DNA from: Escherichia coli
GTDB lineage: Bacteria; Pseudomonadota; Gammaproteobacteria; Enterobacterales; Enterobacteriaceae
Assembly: GCF_003018255.1 (NCBI RefSeq)
Contig: NZ_CP027440.1
Length of the DNA: 64,000 bases
Direction: 5' to 3' (one strand)
How positions within the stretch are numbered: position 1 is the first letter of the stretch; each line of letters opens with the position of its first letter. Both the position numbers and the translations under genes were made by a program. This document shows, in pieces, positions 42,727 to 47,078 of this stretch. Below the pieces are notes generated by a model, which was not told the DNA's origin, did not search any database, and saw only the letters and a program-made list of their open reading frames with translations.

Positions 42727-42850
42727 CATCTCTCTGTGCGCAGTACCTCCTGTATTATTGTGGTGGCGGTCGATATTCGCACTGGCAAAAAAACGTGCTT
42801 GAATATCTGTTGAAACCCTTTAACAAAGCACAGGAGGCGTTGCGCGAACG

Positions 42851-43258
42851 ATGAACATTAGCGATGTAGCAAAAATTACCGGCCTGACCAGCAAAGCCAT
42901 TCGCTTCTATGAAGAGAAGGGGCTGGTGACGCCGCCGATGCGCAGCGAAAACGGTTATCGCACCTACACGCAGCAGCATCTCAACGAACTGACCTTACTG
43001 CGCCAGGCACGCCAGGTGGGCTTTAACCTGGAGGAGAGCGGCGAACTGGTGAATCTGTTTAACGATCCGCAGCGTCACAGCGCCGACGTCAAACGTCGTA
43101 CGCTGGAGAAAGTGGCGGAGATCGAACAGCATATCGAAGAACTGCAATCCATGCGTAACCAGCTGCTGGCGCTGGCGAATGCCTGCCCCGGTGATGACAG
43201 CGCCGACTGCCCGATTATCGAAAATCTCTCCGGCTGCTGTCATCATCGGGCGGGGTGA
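42851..43258 (+). CDS. cueR: Copper-responsive MerR-family regulator CueR (135 aa)
   Basis: Mer[30 protein letters not shown]; C-terminal CxGxxxxDC Cu(I)-binding loop. Confidence 0.95.
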
Positions 43259-43771
43259 TTAAGGCTTGCGAAAATAGTCGTCCATTATTTTCGTCAGCTC
43301 CGGACGTTCCCCGTCATCATTGATGGCAAAATCCAGAAAAAAAGCATCTGCTTGCGGCGTTCGGTTTTGCGCCATCAACCGGAAGGTGAGGGGGCCTGAC
43401 CAGGTTTCGGATGGGCTGATGTGCTTATCAGGGCCGAAACTCTCCCATGCGTTGGGCGGTAATGTTTTGCACGCGGTGAGTTTTGGTATGTGGTATTGCA
43501 GCTCTGTTTTGTGCAGACATTCCCCGCCAGGAAATACCAGGGTTTGTTGCTCATCATTAAAATGGGTTGCCGTGCTGAGCACCAGTGTTTTGAGCGGTCG
43601 CCCTTCCAGCGCGGCGGCAGTAGCCTTATGGTGTCCGTCGAGCAGAACGCAGAGATAGGAATCAGGGAGATACCAGGCCAGAGCGCGGGCGATTCCAGTT
43701 TTCGAGAGCAGACAAAAACCGGGCGGCTCCCTGTTCACCCTCCGCAAAACCGCTGTAGACAAATTCCGCAC
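43259..43771 (-). CDS. Hypothetical protein (170 aa), probably the 3' part of a frameshifted gene; abuts the cueR stop
   Basis: ORF on the minus strand; the overlapping upstream ORF 43735..43989 on the same strand in another frame suggests a single gene of about 240 aa broken by a frameshift. No family recognised. Confidence 0.4.
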   Translation of the reverse strand: MRNLSTAVLRRVNREPPGFCLLSKTGIARALAWYLPDSYLCVLLDGHHKATAAALEGRPLKTLVLSTATHFNDEQQTLVFPGGECLHKTELQYHIPKLTACKTLPPNAWESFGPDKHISPSETWSGPLTFRLMAQNRTPQADAFFLDFAINDDGERPELTKIMDDYFRKP

Positions 43772-43989
43772 AGGTAGGGCAACCAGCCTCGGACCAGAAA
43801 CGTATTAACGGGACATCCTTGCCAGCAGAGCGAATGGATAAGACCGTGCGAGTGCGGATCGTAAATCACACATTGACGCAGAAATCCTTTCCCGGACTTC
43901 ACCGAAAAAATGACGCCCGCAGCGGTATTTTTCAGCAGACGTACTTCAGGTTTTCGAAAGGGGAAAAAGCATGGCCACTCCTTAGCCAA
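43735..43989 (-). pseudogene. 5' part of the same putative frameshifted gene (84-aa ORF, Cys/His-rich: DPHSHG, CWQGCP, CGIC)
   Basis: Overlaps the start of ORF 43259..43771 by 37 nt in a different frame on the same strand. Confidence 0.3.
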
Positions 43990-44060
43990 AATTTCAGTTC
44001 CCTGAACTGTGCCAGAAAATTACGCTGGTGACTATTGCTCTGGAAATGGAAACAGTGTCC

Positions 44061-44267
44061 TTACCCATTAATCCCCGTTTGTACCGAAAGAATATGTTGC
44101 AAACTTTCTACCATAATGCGCCCCGACTGAAATAAGCCTTCCTGGATTTCATTGTTAACATTCACAGCGTGAACCAGGGAGGCTAATAACACCACTTGCA
44201 AGAAGGCAAAAATAAACGCACCGATAATCATAATATGCGTCAGGGGGATTTTCCTTTGCTCCTTCAT
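44061..44267 (-). CDS. Small hydrophobic protein (68 aa, single TM) translationally coupled to the upstream lipoprotein
   Basis: ATGA start/stop overlap with ORF 44264..44686; TM segment IIGAFIFAFLQVVLLASLV. Confidence 0.45.
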   Translation of the reverse strand: MKEQRKIPLTHIMIIGAFIFAFLQVVLLASLVHAVNVNNEIQEGLFQSGRIMVESLQHILSVQTGING

Positions 44268-44686
44268 TTTAAATAACCCACAAACTGGCCTTCTTTCATT
44301 AAGGCGACTTTTCCTGTGTGATGATAAACAATGACATTATACAGACCCGACTGATAAACCGTGGCATCGGCATTATCTTCATCTATGGCACATAATGAAT
44401 CATTGAGATAAGCAAAATTCTTACTACTCATTCTAAAGGTCATGCCAAATCCTTTATAAATGGCTTTTTTTGCCGCCTGGGCATGTTGTGCGGCTTCTGC
44501 ATTTTTAAATGCCTGCGCTTCAGAAGCACTTAAAATAGCCGTCTGGCGCTGCTGTTCTGCGAGATAACAGGTGTCATGGCTGACGCCCTGCGCCTGACAA
44601 TCTGCGATGCGGGAAGCGGGTGAGCTACAGCCAGCCAGTAATATAACCGCCAGCAGGGAAAAGGATTTAATGGAGCTATTCATCAT
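44264..44686 (-). CDS. Lipoprotein (140 aa), possibly a TAA-biogenesis helper
   Basis: Signal peptide plus lipobox LLAGC; located directly downstream of the YadA-anchor adhesin gene. Confidence 0.6.
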   Translation of the reverse strand: MMNSSIKSFSLLAVILLAGCSSPASRIADCQAQGVSHDTCYLAEQQRQTAILSASEAQAFKNAEAAQHAQAAKKAIYKGFGMTFRMSSKNFAYLNDSLCAIDEDNADATVYQSGLYNVIVYHHTGKVALMKEGQFVGYLK

Positions 44687-44771
44687 TGTTAACCTTAAAT
44701 AATGTGCGAATTAATGAAGAGGTGAAACCCGGCAAGCTTCCTTGCTCTTATTTATATTGAGGATTGAAATA

Positions 44772-45788
44772 TTAGAACGAATATCCTACGCCGACACCTG
44801 CGCCGAAATCAGATTGCGTATCCGCAGAAATACCGGCTTTAAGTACCGTATGCGTTCCGGCATTAAAAGATGTTCCGACAGACACCGCAGATTCACCGTT
44901 GAAGGTTCCCGCTCCCGCTGACACCATCATCACGTCACCGGTTTTAACCTGTGGTTGTGAGGCGATAGCGATGGCAGATGCAGTTCCCGCATTGGCTTCT
45001 TTACGGTTGTCCTCAACTTCGTTTTTCAGCGAACTGTAATGGTTATTGAGCGTGTTAATTTGTTGGCTGTTATCTGCGACCCGTTTTTGCGTGTTGCTTA
45101 ACTGTTGCTGCGTTTGTGCGGAATCTTGTCTCAGACTTTCAATTTGCTCATGTGCCTGGACAGACTTCTGCGCCAGACTTTGCATTTGTTTATCGTATTG
45201 AGCCCTTTCTTTTTGCTGTTGTGCTGCCACATCGGTTGTCAGTGCATTCATTTTCTGCCCTTGTTCCGTGGTAGTGCGCTGATTAGCCTCATTTTGAGCC
45301 GCCAGTCTGGCATTAATCATCTCCTGATAATGCGCAGTATTTTGCGTATCTCCAGTCGCGGCGAGCGTTTTTTGTGTGGCTACGATCTGCGCCTGTTGCT
45401 CTGTAATTTGCGTTTGCTGGGCATCAGTTACCGCAGACTGTCGGGCGTTGATCATGCTCTGATAACGGGCAGGTGTCTGTGTATCACCTGTAGCGGCAAC
45501 GGTTTTTTGTCCTGCGTCAGGATCTGTCTGGACAGTGGGAGTCTGAGTGGTATCAGGTGTTTCAGAAGGGATGTAGTGATGTTCAGTCAAATAGGTATAC
45601 GCAGCGGGGCTGTTGTCTGTGCGTTCTAAAAAGCGGGTAATCTTCTGCTCAATCTCCGATTGCGACATGCCAGAGTTAATGGCTGAAAGCTCTGTTGCCG
45701 CCGCTTCAATGGTATCACCAGCTAAAACAACAGGGCTGGATGTTGCTGAAATTATGAGTGCCAGTAAAGCTACGTTTACAGTTTTCAT
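44772..45788 (-). CDS. Small trimeric-autotransporter-like adhesin (338 aa): signal peptide, Q-rich coiled-coil stalk with a tandem 43-aa repeat, C-terminal YadA-type beta-barrel anchor
   Basis: N-terminal signal MKTVNVALLALIISATSSPVVLAGD. Repeats ...AATGDTQTPARYQSMINARQSAV... and ...AATGDTQNTAHYQEMINARLAAQ.... C-terminus AIAIASQPQV...GAGVGVGYSF matches the YadA anchor (terminal aromatic). Confidence 0.7.
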   Translation of the reverse strand: MKTVNVALLALIISATSSPVVLAGDTIEAAATELSAINSGMSQSEIEQKITRFLERTDNSPAAYTYLTEHHYIPSETPDTTQTPTVQTDPDAGQKTVAATGDTQTPARYQSMINARQSAVTDAQQTQITEQQAQIVATQKTLAATGDTQNTAHYQEMINARLAAQNEANQRTTTEQGQKMNALTTDVAAQQQKERAQYDKQMQSLAQKSVQAHEQIESLRQDSAQTQQQLSNTQKRVADNSQQINTLNNHYSSLKNEVEDNRKEANAGTASAIAIASQPQVKTGDVMMVSAGAGTFNGESAVSVGTSFNAGTHTVLKAGISADTQSDFGAGVGVGYSF

Positions 45789-45822
45789 TCATTTTCTCTT
45801 GTTCAAAATAAGTCGCATTAAT

Positions 45823-45839
45823 GTTTCTATAAGAAACAA
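45823..45839. promoter_or_regulatory. Palindrome TGTTTCTaTAAGAAACA in the island's divergent promoter region
   Basis: Perfect inverted repeat, 35 bp upstream of the adhesin start codon. Confidence 0.45.
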
Positions 45840-45948
45840 ATAATATTATTTTAAGAAATAAACTGCGTTGCAATTTAATCGAAATCTACGCCGCCATTTG
45901 TGTGATGTAAAGCGCATTTTTGTCTGGTGTAAGCGTAAACACCACCAA

Positions 45949-45969
45949 TAAGAAACAAAAAATGTTTCT
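45949..45969. promoter_or_regulatory. Second palindrome AAGAAACAaaaaaTGTTTCTT, same half-site in the opposite arrangement
   Basis: Shares the TGTTTCT/AGAAACA half-sites with the first palindrome about 125 bp away. Confidence 0.45.
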
Positions 45970-46154
45970 TATATAAATAAAATCGAAAATCATTTTGTGC
46001 TCTTTCAATGTAAAAAAGAGTAAAGACTTGTTTTGATAAGCGAAATAAATTCTGTTTCTGGACTAAACGTGAAGCGGTTCCTGATGTGTGCTAAAATGCG
46101 TTTCTTTGATAAATCTCAATTTTTAAGAGGTTTACGCCAGGCAGGAAAATTTAA

Positions 46155-46517
46155 ATGAATGAATTTGAGAAGATTTTTAATGAAATGAATCTGGACCGGG
46201 CATTGTTACCGATCCTTTTTCGTTCGAACCGGTCGACAGTGTGGAAGTATTTAAGCGGCGATAGTACGGCTCCTGCCTCTGCCATGTCGCTGATCATGCT
46301 GTTGCAGTTGATCCAGAAACGAAACCCCGATCTGTTAGCCGAATGGTTAACGCTTTCTGATTTCACCATTCCGCCAGAAGTTTACCTGGACCAACCTGAT
46401 TACTGGAAAGGGTGGGTGTATACCCAACACAAGGTCAATAAAAACGTCCTGGAATATCTAAAAAAACACTATCCGGATGAAGACCAAAAAAGTATGGGTA
46501 AAGGCCGGGAAGAGTAA
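46155..46517 (+). CDS. Hypothetical 120-aa protein with a possible HTH (RSNRSTVWKYLSGDSTAPASAMSLIMLL), divergent from the adhesin operon
   Basis: ORF with RBS AAGAGG 9 nt upstream; XRE/Cro-like pattern (STV.+.L.G...P). Confidence 0.45.
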   Translation: MNEFEKIFNEMNLDRALLPILFRSNRSTVWKYLSGDSTAPASAMSLIMLLQLIQKRNPDLLAEWLTLSDFTIPPEVYLDQPDYWKGWVYTQHKVNKNVLEYLKKHYPDEDQKSMGKGREE

Positions 46518-46538
46518 TTTTGCCTCTACTCGGCTATA

Positions 46539-46626
46539 TGCCGGATGCGGCGCAAGCGCCTTATCTGGCCTACGATTCGGGCATATTTTGTAGGCATGAT
46601 AAGACGCGCCAGCGTCGCATCAGGCG
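46539..46626. repeat. REP/BIME element pair at the island/ybbJ boundary
   Basis: GCCGGATGCGGCGCAAGCGCCTTATCTGGCCTACG ... GTAGGCATGATAAGACGCGCCAGCGTCGCATCAGGCG. Confidence 0.75.
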
Positions 46627-47078
46627 ATGACCGCACGGATAATCAGCGTTATCCCTTCTATCGCAATCACCTCAACATGCGTACCTGCACTGAGATCCTC
46701 GCTGGCGCTGACAGGCCATGAACTGTCACCGACGCGCATATGACCACGCCCGTTGACCAGCGGAGATTCCAGAACAAAACGTCGGCCAATCAACTGCTGC
46801 CCGCGCTGGTTTAAATGACTGTCGCTGTGCTTTTGTTCGCGCACCCGCCGCGACAACCATTTCCACCACAGCCAGGCGGCGAGCAGCGTCAGGACGGCAA
46901 ACATTACCCCTTGCCACTCCCAACCCAGCGGCAGCAACCAGACCACCAGACCGGTAATCACCGCTGCCACGCCGCTCCACAACAGATAACCATTGCCGCC
47001 CAACATCTCGGCTGCCAGCAGCAAACCGCCGAGACTTAGCCAGAAAATATGTGGATGAACGACCATTAACTCCATCAT
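46620..47078 (-). CDS. ybbJ: NfeD-like inner membrane protein YbbJ (152 aa)
   Basis: Full ORF with TM N-terminus and OB-fold C-terminus; overlaps qmcA by 4 nt. Confidence 0.9.

Follow-up and report, generated by a model that had tools for sequence, protein, structure and literature searches.

What does a strain of Escherichia coli gain when the core genes cueR and ybbJ are separated by a few additional genes? In the 64,000-nucleotide stretch of contig NZ_CP027440.1 (assembly GCF_003018255.1) that we analyzed, hereafter the window, the segment from position 43259 to position 46626 is accessory DNA separating cueR from ybbJ. One of its genes encodes a protein of 338 amino acids (aa). This gene occurs in about one-quarter of E. 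coli genomes and is cited by reviews as coding for a transcription factor, GmrA, whereas its sequence features speak for a secreted outer-membrane fiber. Finding the locus is in itself not news, since it is already catalogued as O-island 29 (OI-29) and gmrA. The function of this known locus is, however, probably mislabelled, and the current gmrA label may mislead studies of the flagellar regulatory network as well as the choice of surface antigens. We consider it likely that this known island carries a cassette of a small trimeric adhesin and a partner lipoprotein. The principal features are listed below with their window coordinates, strand and basis.

44772-45788, minus strand: open reading frame (ORF) of the 338-aa adhesin (Pfam YadA_anchor; anchors in the PDB; 'YadA family autotransporter adhesin' in the Prokaryotic Genome Annotation Pipeline, PGAP)
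45720-45788, minus strand: predicted signal peptide, codons 1-23, MKTVNVALLALIISATSSPVVLA, cleaved before GD (read from the sequence)
45261-45509, minus strand: two tandem 45-aa repeats, residues 94-131 and 139-176 (protein self-alignment, DNA repeats)
44979-45251, minus strand: heptad coiled-coil stalk, residues 180-270, which leads into the anchor (hydrophobic periodicity)
44775-44954, minus strand: YadA-type membrane anchor, residues 279-338, ending in ...GVGYSF (Pfam PF03895, periodicity, identity across E. coli alleles)
44264-44686, minus strand: 140-aa lipoprotein (lipobox LLAG, lipid-bearing Cys20)
44061-44267, minus strand: 68-aa bitopic membrane protein (maximum hydropathy 2.76)
45789-46154, no strand assigned: divergent control region, 366 bp, 31% G+C (AT-rich, AGAAAC sites)
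46155-46517, plus strand: 120-aa protein, z0640 (primer mapping; divergent homologues)

Architecture of the 338-aa protein

For the 338-aa protein we predict the architecture of a small trimeric autotransporter (type Vc) that has no YadA-type head, and this assignment is well supported. Its C-terminal residues 279-338 align with all 60 positions (1-60) of the Pfam profile YadA_anchor (PF03895); the match has E = 1.1e-11 and scores 45 bits, above the cut-off of 22.7. In the PDB, the anchors solved for AtaA, Hia and YadA match this region as well, and residues 271-338 show the alternation of hydrophobicity with period 2 (z = 3.1). The YadA-type C-terminal anchor that a first-pass annotation of this DNA had proposed is therefore upheld by a profile match above the cut-off.

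At the opposite end, a heuristic reading of the sequence predicts a signal peptide that starts with MK and a basic n-region, continues with a hydrophobic core of 20 residues and ends with V-L-A at positions -3 to -1. A divergent allele of 471 aa keeps an equivalent signal peptide (MNTVKLSLLAVVVATAVSPSAFA, then GD), as do homologues from other genera. This agrees with the signal peptide assigned in the first-pass annotation. For long adhesin alleles, RefSeq sets the start codon too far downstream, so that the annotated proteins have 349 or 431 aa and contain no signal peptide (L005:2590-3639, L006:2323-3618, L007:2269-3564). In the first of these loci, the only one that we re-read, the frame is open further upstream and affords a 471-aa protein with a normal signal peptide.

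Between signal peptide and anchor, the protein contains a conserved N-terminal domain of about 50 residues followed by a Pro/Thr-rich linker instead of a classical head. A head is common among trimeric autotransporters but is not obligatory. Pfam motifs for the YadA head, neck or stalk were found neither in the window protein nor in 40 homologues that are encoded next to a related lipoprotein (see below). The statement that no head is recognizable is thus correct with respect to Pfam motifs, but it overlooked the small domain that stands in its place. The linker region is followed by a tandem repeat, for which alignment of residues 94-131 with residues 139-176 scores 114 compared to 33 ± 6 for shuffled sequences. 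On the DNA level, the repeat consists of two 90-nt copies that are 70% identical and lie 135 nt apart. The period is therefore 45 aa rather than the 43 aa given before, although the repeat itself is real. Tandem Repeats Finder did not detect this 45-codon repeat because the copies are just 70% identical. The core motif KTxAATGDxQTxA(R/H)YQxMINAR is invariant across alleles.

Residues 180-270 display a hydrophobic periodicity of 3.5 residues (z = 4.6 against shuffled sequences). For residues 94-180, which include the 45-aa repeats, the heptad periodicity is not significant. The coiled-coil stalk suggested earlier can thus be located in the segment next to the anchor, but not in the repeats. The protein had also been described as unusually small, which does not hold: linked homologues of 230-290 aa exist, and a length of 338 aa is small but unexceptional. 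Among E. coli alleles the anchor is invariant while the passenger varies, giving proteins of 338 aa and about 471 aa, and across the genus Escherichia the adhesin ranges from 338 to about 586 aa. An invariant anchor combined with a passenger of variable length is the behavior of a surface protein.

Taken together, these features suggest the following route. The 338-aa precursor would be exported by the Sec pathway, with cleavage after VLA23. The β-barrel assembly machinery (BAM) would next insert three of the four-stranded C-terminal anchors as a single barrel, and the passenger, from residue 24 to about residue 270, would be displayed as a trimeric fiber.

A conserved lipoprotein linkage and its control region

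The gene downstream of the adhesin encodes a lipoprotein, as the first-pass annotation had it: the lipobox LLAG is followed by the lipid-bearing Cys20. The residue at position +2 is serine (Ser-Ser after Cys20), and the mature protein of 13 kDa contains two more conserved cysteines. Serine in this position predicts an outer-membrane lipoprotein, and no member of the family carries aspartate after the lipid-bearing cysteine (alignment A2). The structural model consists of a long helix followed by a confident eight-stranded barrel at residues 75-139. No Pfam family matched this protein. A match to TraV in NCBIfam reached 18 bits against a cut-off of 45 and covers the lipobox and the Cys-rich N-terminus; we took it as noise.

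The third gene in this row encodes a protein of 68 aa with a single membrane-spanning segment at approximately residues 12-33. Its basic N-terminus is predicted to be cytoplasmic and its C-terminus of about 35 aa to be periplasmic. The start of this gene overlaps the stop codon of the lipoprotein gene by 4 nt, so that both the ORF list and the hydropathy profile bear out the earlier description of a membrane protein coupled to the lipoprotein. Homologues with the same 4-nt overlap were found only in Escherichia, Pseudocitrobacter and Enterobacteriaceae bacterium G50.

To what extent is the lipoprotein tied to the adhesin? A scan for lipoprotein homologues with one genome per species returned 80 loci, and at about 39 of them a co-oriented ORF with a YadA anchor ends 35-328 nt upstream of the lipoprotein gene. 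Among loci with a full-length match to the lipoprotein, the adhesin is directly upstream in 32 of 56. This arrangement occurs in Escherichia, Pseudocitrobacter, Rahnella, Yersinia, Ewingella, Hafnia, Enterobacter, Lelliottia, Buttiauxella, Phytobacter and Pantoea. In Pseudocitrobacter and Enterobacter, even distant homologues of the lipoprotein are encoded just downstream of YadA-anchor genes in unrelated genomic contexts. The YadA_anchor threshold of Pfam is passed by 38 of the 40 linked adhesins, and none of the 40 contains a YadA head. This conserved linkage points to a functional cassette that is not limited to E. coli, and we found no description of it in the literature that we searched. 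The lipoprotein may be a dedicated partner which acts on the adhesin from the periplasmic side, either in assembly or in stabilization. In E. coli, the three genes for adhesin, lipoprotein and the coupled 68-aa protein, predicted to be in the inner membrane, follow each other on the minus strand in an operon-like row. Two sites that weakly resemble promoters point towards the adhesin gene. Since the scans for promoters and terminators performed no better on this DNA than on shuffled sequences, we claim no operon boundary from them.

Several linked loci differ in detail. Collagen triple-helix repeats (Pfam Collagen, best E = 1.5e-23) are present in 9 of the 40 linked adhesins of alignment A4. 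Pseudocitrobacter faecalis contains two tandem adhesin-like genes upstream of the lipoprotein gene (L008:801-4532), of which the first alone, coding for 633 aa, has a YadA_anchor match in the Pfam listing. Some other lipoprotein homologues adjoin proteins of 211-260 aa that start with a coiled coil and end in a His/Gly-rich tail, and which are not adhesins (L013:4090-5525, L014:5001-6451). The 211-aa neighbor in L014 has a signal peptide, and one such non-adhesin locus (L013/L014) resides on a plasmid-like contig with Rep3 and ParA genes.

On the other side of the adhesin, the 120-aa gene is transcribed divergently across an AT-rich region studded with AGAAAC sites. Homologues of this gene stand divergently upstream of a linked adhesin at 21 loci, and at three more loci directly upstream of the lipoprotein gene where no adhesin was detected. 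The family is small, with 23 clusters among 1.84 billion representatives. The first-pass annotation called this gene helix-turn-helix (HTH)-like. Matches to the HTH part of MqsA_antitoxin in 8 of 13 family members (best E = 0.0071) provide a weak hint in this direction, but all of them are below threshold, the structural and profile-profile tests for an HTH in this protein were not significant, and the AlphaFold model is poor. Neither fold nor profile comparison therefore confirmed the assignment. The family profile also matches seven repeats of a giant YDG/MBG/CHU_C protein (P0201, 2,772 aa; E = 2.4e-12), which is a substrate of type IX secretion; the matched part of the 120-aa protein comprises residues 56-105 (window 46320-46470). 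A possible meaning of this match is that the C-terminal half of the protein lies outside any HTH domain.

The control region between the two divergent genes contains 6 of the window's 30 AGAAAC/GTTTCT sites within 366 bp, compared to about 0.17 expected from the window-wide density. Four of these sites form two palindromes, GTTTCT-ATA-AGAAAC (45823-45837) and AGAAAC-N7-GTTTCT (45951-45969). Other Escherichia species have the sites at conserved positions, and this is in part also true of Pseudocitrobacter and G50. The sites are candidate operators. The 120-aa product, a helical protein, may regulate the cassette.

Identity, flanks and history of the island

The segment is O-island 29 of E. coli O157:H7 strain EDL933, or S-loop 43 of strain Sakai, together with what remains of a decayed 407-aa gene. 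O-island 29 was described by Yang et al. (2018, PMC5826968) as 2,643 bp of DNA with the genes z0638, z0639 (renamed gmrA) and z0640. The primers they used to delete OI-29, z0638, gmrA and z0640 can be placed in the window with 0-2 mismatches, on either side of the ORFs concerned. The lambda-Red homology arms for OI-29 are found at 43221-43258 and 46629-46667. Those for gmrA are located at 44734-44771 and 45789-45827, immediately flanking the 338-aa ORF, whereas the arms for z0638 bracket the gene for the 140-aa lipoprotein and the forward arm for z0640 ends at 46154. In the Sakai annotation, the corresponding genes are ECs_0546 ('putative lipoprotein'), ECs_0548 ('adhesin') and ECs_0549. Ogura et al. 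(2007) had already listed ECs0548 as a 'Saa-like protein' of S-loop 43 that is not found in K-12, is present in UTI89 and APEC O1 and is conserved in 8 of 8 O157 strains.

Window and O157 share the position between cueR and ybbJ and the order of the genes, and their adhesin alleles are 95% identical. The island measures 3.37 kb in the window, where the remnant of the 407-aa gene lies between cueR and the 68-aa gene, compared to 2.64 kb in O157. The window has two repetitive extragenic palindromic (REP) elements where O157 has three or four, and the 68-aa gene is not among the three OI-29 genes listed in PMC5826968. The features at the borders of the island are as follows.

42851-43258, plus strand: cueR, core gene and left flank (Pfam MerR_1 and MerR-DNA-bind; PGAP name cueR)
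43259-43771, minus strand: 170-aa ORF (ORF list)
43259-43989, minus strand: module A, remnant of a 407-aa gene in decay, with its frame shifted and about 0.5 kb missing internally (frameshifted pseudogene according to PGAP in an identical strain)
46540-46573 and 46592-46627, no strand assigned: REP pair in inverted orientation (REP consensus, Rfam; the second element overlaps the ybbJ stop codon)
46620-47078, minus strand: ybbJ, core gene and right flank (Pfam NfeD; PGAP name ybbJ)

The G+C content is about 0.55 in the flanks and 0.31-0.48 within the segment. All ORFs described by the first-pass annotation were recovered at the positions it gave. Its count of five or six extra ORFs needs one correction, because the 170-aa ORF beside cueR is the 3' part of the frameshifted and internally deleted 407-aa gene. 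Its statement that cueR and ybbJ adjoin in K-12 proved to be accurate, as did the presence of a REP pair on the ybbJ side. In a K-12 derivative the two stop codons abut: the TGA of cueR is directly followed by the stop codon of ybbJ, which reads TTA on the window strand (L004:1730-1830 compared with window 46590-46660). The last 30 or so nucleotides of the K-12 ybbJ gene are far more diverged than the remaining gene, and the encoded C-terminus reads ...HIRAVSS in K-12 and ...IIRAVIA in the window. This divergence indicates a deletion or recombination junction inside the 3' end of ybbJ. The REP at 46540-46573 has 2 mismatches to the 34-nt E. coli REP consensus, for which the chance expectation is none, and both elements match the Rfam family naRNA4 (derived from REP325) on opposite strands with E = 0.005-0.007, which is below the gathering score. 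O157 and strains with module A only also have REPs at this site; K-12 has none there.

The distribution of the island was examined by a megablast search with window positions 43000-47000 against 5,426 complete E. coli genomes. Four states of the site could be distinguished: empty as in K-12, module A alone, the four-gene module B alone as in O157, and both modules together as in the window. The empty K-12 type accounts for about 60% of these genomes. Of the genomes searched, 1,381 contain the 338-aa gene, in every case on the chromosome; 965 contain module A, in many instances with no adhesin cassette; and at least 162 contain both modules. That the segment could be core sequence shared by all E. 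coli including K-12 was a possibility raised by the first-pass annotation; the segment is missing from K-12. Escherichia sp. E1V33 and E. whittamii contain the full intact series of ybbJ, z0640, adhesin, lipoprotein, 68-aa gene, 407-aa gene and cueR, and E. ruysiae contains the same series minus the 407-aa gene. Since the island is intact at the same site in these other species, it must be old there, and its absence from K-12 represents a loss. Judged from these comparisons, the cassette is an old feature of the Escherichia lineage that K-12-type strains have lost. This conclusion reverses the published view from 2018, according to which the island was acquired four times independently (Yang et al., PMC5826968).

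Outside Escherichia, Pseudocitrobacter cyperus and Enterobacteriaceae bacterium G50 contain the same four-gene cassette between fetA and qmcA (L011:3138-5671, L020:4123-6659, L028:4049-6666), an intergenic site that is about 1.4 kb away from the ybbJ-cueR site. Intact versions of the 407-aa gene occur at L097:2501-3724, L017:6715-7935 and L018:6715-7935. The encoded protein has no match in Pfam, NCBIfam, PADLOC or the PDB, and no signal peptide was seen. A role in anti-phage defense was considered for the 407-aa, 120-aa and lipoprotein genes and was rejected, as none of them has a match in PADLOC. Just before cueR, RefSeq marks a frameshifted gene fragment of 98 nt in window-like strains (window 42757-42854). 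O157 and a number of other strains have a type I secretion system and a giant ORF (ECs_0542 to ECs_0544; L002:1-1355, L016:1-15161) in place of ybaT upstream of cueR, and the 98-nt fragment may be a leftover of this secretion system.

Competing readings and comparison with known systems

Several observations weigh against reading the island as an adhesin cassette. Trimerization, surface exposure and the cleavage site of the signal peptide are predictions, and the adhesive role of the 338-aa protein is putative: deletion of OI-29 left the adherence to HeLa and Caco-2 cells unchanged (PMC5826968). About half of the lipoprotein homologues have no adhesin gene next to them, so this family is not strictly dedicated to adhesins. 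Moreover, Yang et al. report that deletion of the 338-aa ORF lowers motility and the expression of fliA and fliC in eight strains, that complementation restores them, that the gene raises the motility of K-12, and that the tagged protein shifts and co-precipitates the fliA promoter (PMC5826968). We have no explanation for this motility phenotype, which as a genetic phenotype may well be real.

The sole paper on gmrA (Yang et al. 2018, PMC5826968), which lists O157:H7 as well as neonatal-meningitis, avian and uropathogenic strains as carriers, labels the product a transcription factor. On this view, GmrA would act in the cytoplasm as a transcriptional activator, with the fliA promoter as its binding site and flagellar genes turned on as a result, and its likeness to trimeric autotransporters would have no bearing on its function. 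Besides the effects on motility just mentioned, deletion and complementation also changed the number of flagella and the transcripts of motA; the electrophoretic mobility shift assay (EMSA) included competition and an rpoS negative control; chromatin immunoprecipitation followed by quantitative PCR (ChIP-qPCR) enriched the fliA promoter; and two later reviews repeated the claim. We nevertheless consider this explanation very unlikely. The protein combines a classical signal peptide with a full-length YadA anchor above threshold, and an outer-membrane protein exported by Sec would not meet DNA. Neither the window allele nor the O157 allele nor the mature N-terminus on its own matched a DNA-binding family at E <= 1 in Pfam or E <= 0.1 in NCBIfam, and profile searches detected no HTH in the mature N-terminus or in the O157 allele. 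Sizeable matches outside the anchor are limited to coiled-coil noise, such as SMC with 22 bits against a cut-off of 567, and an artefact of this type may be behind the result of the conserved-domain search in the paper. The 338-aa protein is also acidic, with a predicted pI of 5.0. The terminal aromatic strand of outer-membrane proteins serves as a recognition signal for the assembly machinery. According to the published cloning primers (PMC5826968), the protein used for EMSA carried a His6-tag ahead of the complete precursor including the uncleaved signal peptide, and the protein used for ChIP carried a 3xFLAG-tag directly behind the terminal ...GVGYSF. With tags in these positions, both proteins were likely non-native and kept in the cytoplasm. 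The complementing fragment also contains the whole 366-bp control region, and an indirect effect is thus possible. The variable length of the passenger, the invariant anchor and the linkage to a lipoprotein all fit a surface protein. Direct DNA binding by GmrA therefore appears hard to reconcile with its sequence and would not be its native mode of action.

A different objection concerns the partners. Lipoprotein and 68-aa protein might not be helpers at all, and the lipoprotein could act in the envelope independently of the adhesin, perhaps as a MliC/PliC/ACP-type inhibitor or binding protein, and simply travel with surface-protein genes. This would be consistent with the homologue loci that lack an adjacent YadA-anchor gene, some of which contain the lipoprotein gene alone or beside other secreted proteins, with the confinement of the 68-aa gene to Escherichia and close relatives, and with the absence of a motility phenotype after deletion of z0638 (PMC5826968). 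On the other hand, genes for trimeric autotransporters are rare in any one genome, and their recurrence at about half of the independent species loci, in varied chromosomal contexts, is not due to chance. The gaps between adhesin and lipoprotein genes are short, and the coding strand shows no terminator-like site between them, within the limits of a scan that was no better than shuffles. In our estimate, an independent envelope factor is unlikely, though by no means far-fetched. That the entire island is decaying junk, a relic with non-functional ORFs, we regard as extremely improbable. One island gene, that for the 407-aa protein, is indeed a pseudogene in the window, the majority of E. coli genomes contain no island, and the missing adherence phenotype of the OI-29 deletion would also agree with a relic. 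However, four ORFs are intact in the 1,381 genomes as well as in other Escherichia species, and their proteins are highly identical (94-99% in the case of the lipoprotein and of the 120-aa protein). Conservation of the cassette also extends across genera. Furthermore, OI-29 transcripts are detected and regulated in O157, with all three OI-29 genes expressed and co-repressed (PMC5826968, Table S3).

If the island is read as a cassette of adhesin and partner lipoprotein, relatives in other genera suggest an additional twist. The linked adhesins from nine Rahnella species, Ewingella and one uncultured relative contain a conserved segment of about 42 residues before the core of the signal peptide, for example MKAQLTERNTQIIAAYIAGNTNKIELAHYFGVSASTIRRVLAG, which is then followed by the hydrophobic core and an AxA site (L029:4734-5939, L036:3750-5936, L039:4206-5954, L041:4443-5927, L046:4275-5957, L055:3898-5781; also L066 from the MSQQPQSRN start and L064 from MKDQVTAHN). 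This extension matches many HTH families of Pfam, some of them with scores above the threshold: CENP-B_N (22.7-24.4 vs 21.2), HTH_23 (25.0 vs 24.6) and HTH_7 (24.7 vs 23.8). The variable sites in its coding sequence number 30, 21 and 42 of 45 at the first, second and third codon position, respectively, so that variation is greatest at third positions. The upstream ATG is universal, and a conserved internal start codon is not found. The E. coli adhesin has no such N-terminal extension. We know of no precedent for a DNA-binding 'signal peptide'. In Rahnella-type adhesins, cleavage by signal peptidase could leave one membrane-tethered or releasable DNA-binding fragment per exported adhesin. We therefore put forward, as a tentative proposal that is rather unlikely to hold in full, that head-less adhesins of the Enterobacterales have a third, undescribed type of trimeric-autotransporter accessory and that this adhesin family is perhaps wired to transcription. 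The accessory would comprise an outer-membrane lipoprotein with a small barrel and, in Escherichia, the coupled 68-aa inner-membrane protein. If this were true, the motility phenotype of E. coli GmrA might be the distorted view of a real, secretion-coupled regulatory link.

How does the cassette compare with known adhesin systems? In its overall composition, the window adhesin resembles Saa and the Eib proteins, which likewise combine a signal peptide and a YadA-type anchor with a passenger that is mainly coiled coil. The same description applies to NadA and DsrA. The N-terminal domain of about 50 aa and the 45-aa repeat, however, are shared only with relatives from Escherichia and Pseudocitrobacter.

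For the partner, the first-pass annotation had drawn an analogy to SadA and SadB of Salmonella. The two systems have in common that the genes for an adhesin and a small lipoprotein adjoin each other, that both genes are jointly lost in K-12-type strains and that the linkage is conserved among enterobacteria. Beyond this arrangement, the analogy fails with respect to sequence, fold, predicted membrane and gene order. SadB is a 24-kDa lipoprotein of the inner membrane with aspartate at position +2, is encoded upstream of the adhesin and consists of a trimeric coiled coil and a MATH-like domain (Grin et al. 2014, PMC3953254). In contrast, the window lipoprotein is encoded downstream, has serine at +2 and a mature mass of 13 kDa, and its model combines a helix with an eight-stranded barrel. 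Neither its sequence nor its fold matches SadB or YajI, and we rejected homology to SadB on the grounds that no sequence match exists and the fold is a small eight-stranded barrel instead of a MATH-like sandwich. The adhesins differ as well, since SadA is a giant protein with heads and the window adhesin is head-less and 338 aa long.

The second known pair, AtaA and TpgA of Acinetobacter, is similar in that the partner gene is also located downstream, and binding to the anchor from the periplasm may be proposed for the window lipoprotein by analogy. TpgA homologues carry a BamE domain with or without an OmpA-type peptidoglycan-binding domain. Searches of Pfam and NCBIfam found neither BamE (SmpA/OmlA) nor OmpA domains in the window lipoprotein, and we rejected a partner of the TpgA type. 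A global survey from 2026 reported no adhesin-specific partners beyond SadB and TpgA, but considered just adhesins with a YadA head; this restriction would leave out the head-less clade. SadB and TpgA are the only adhesin-specific partners described so far, and the small-barrel lipoprotein, linked to head-less adhesins in more than 10 genera, offers a third candidate.

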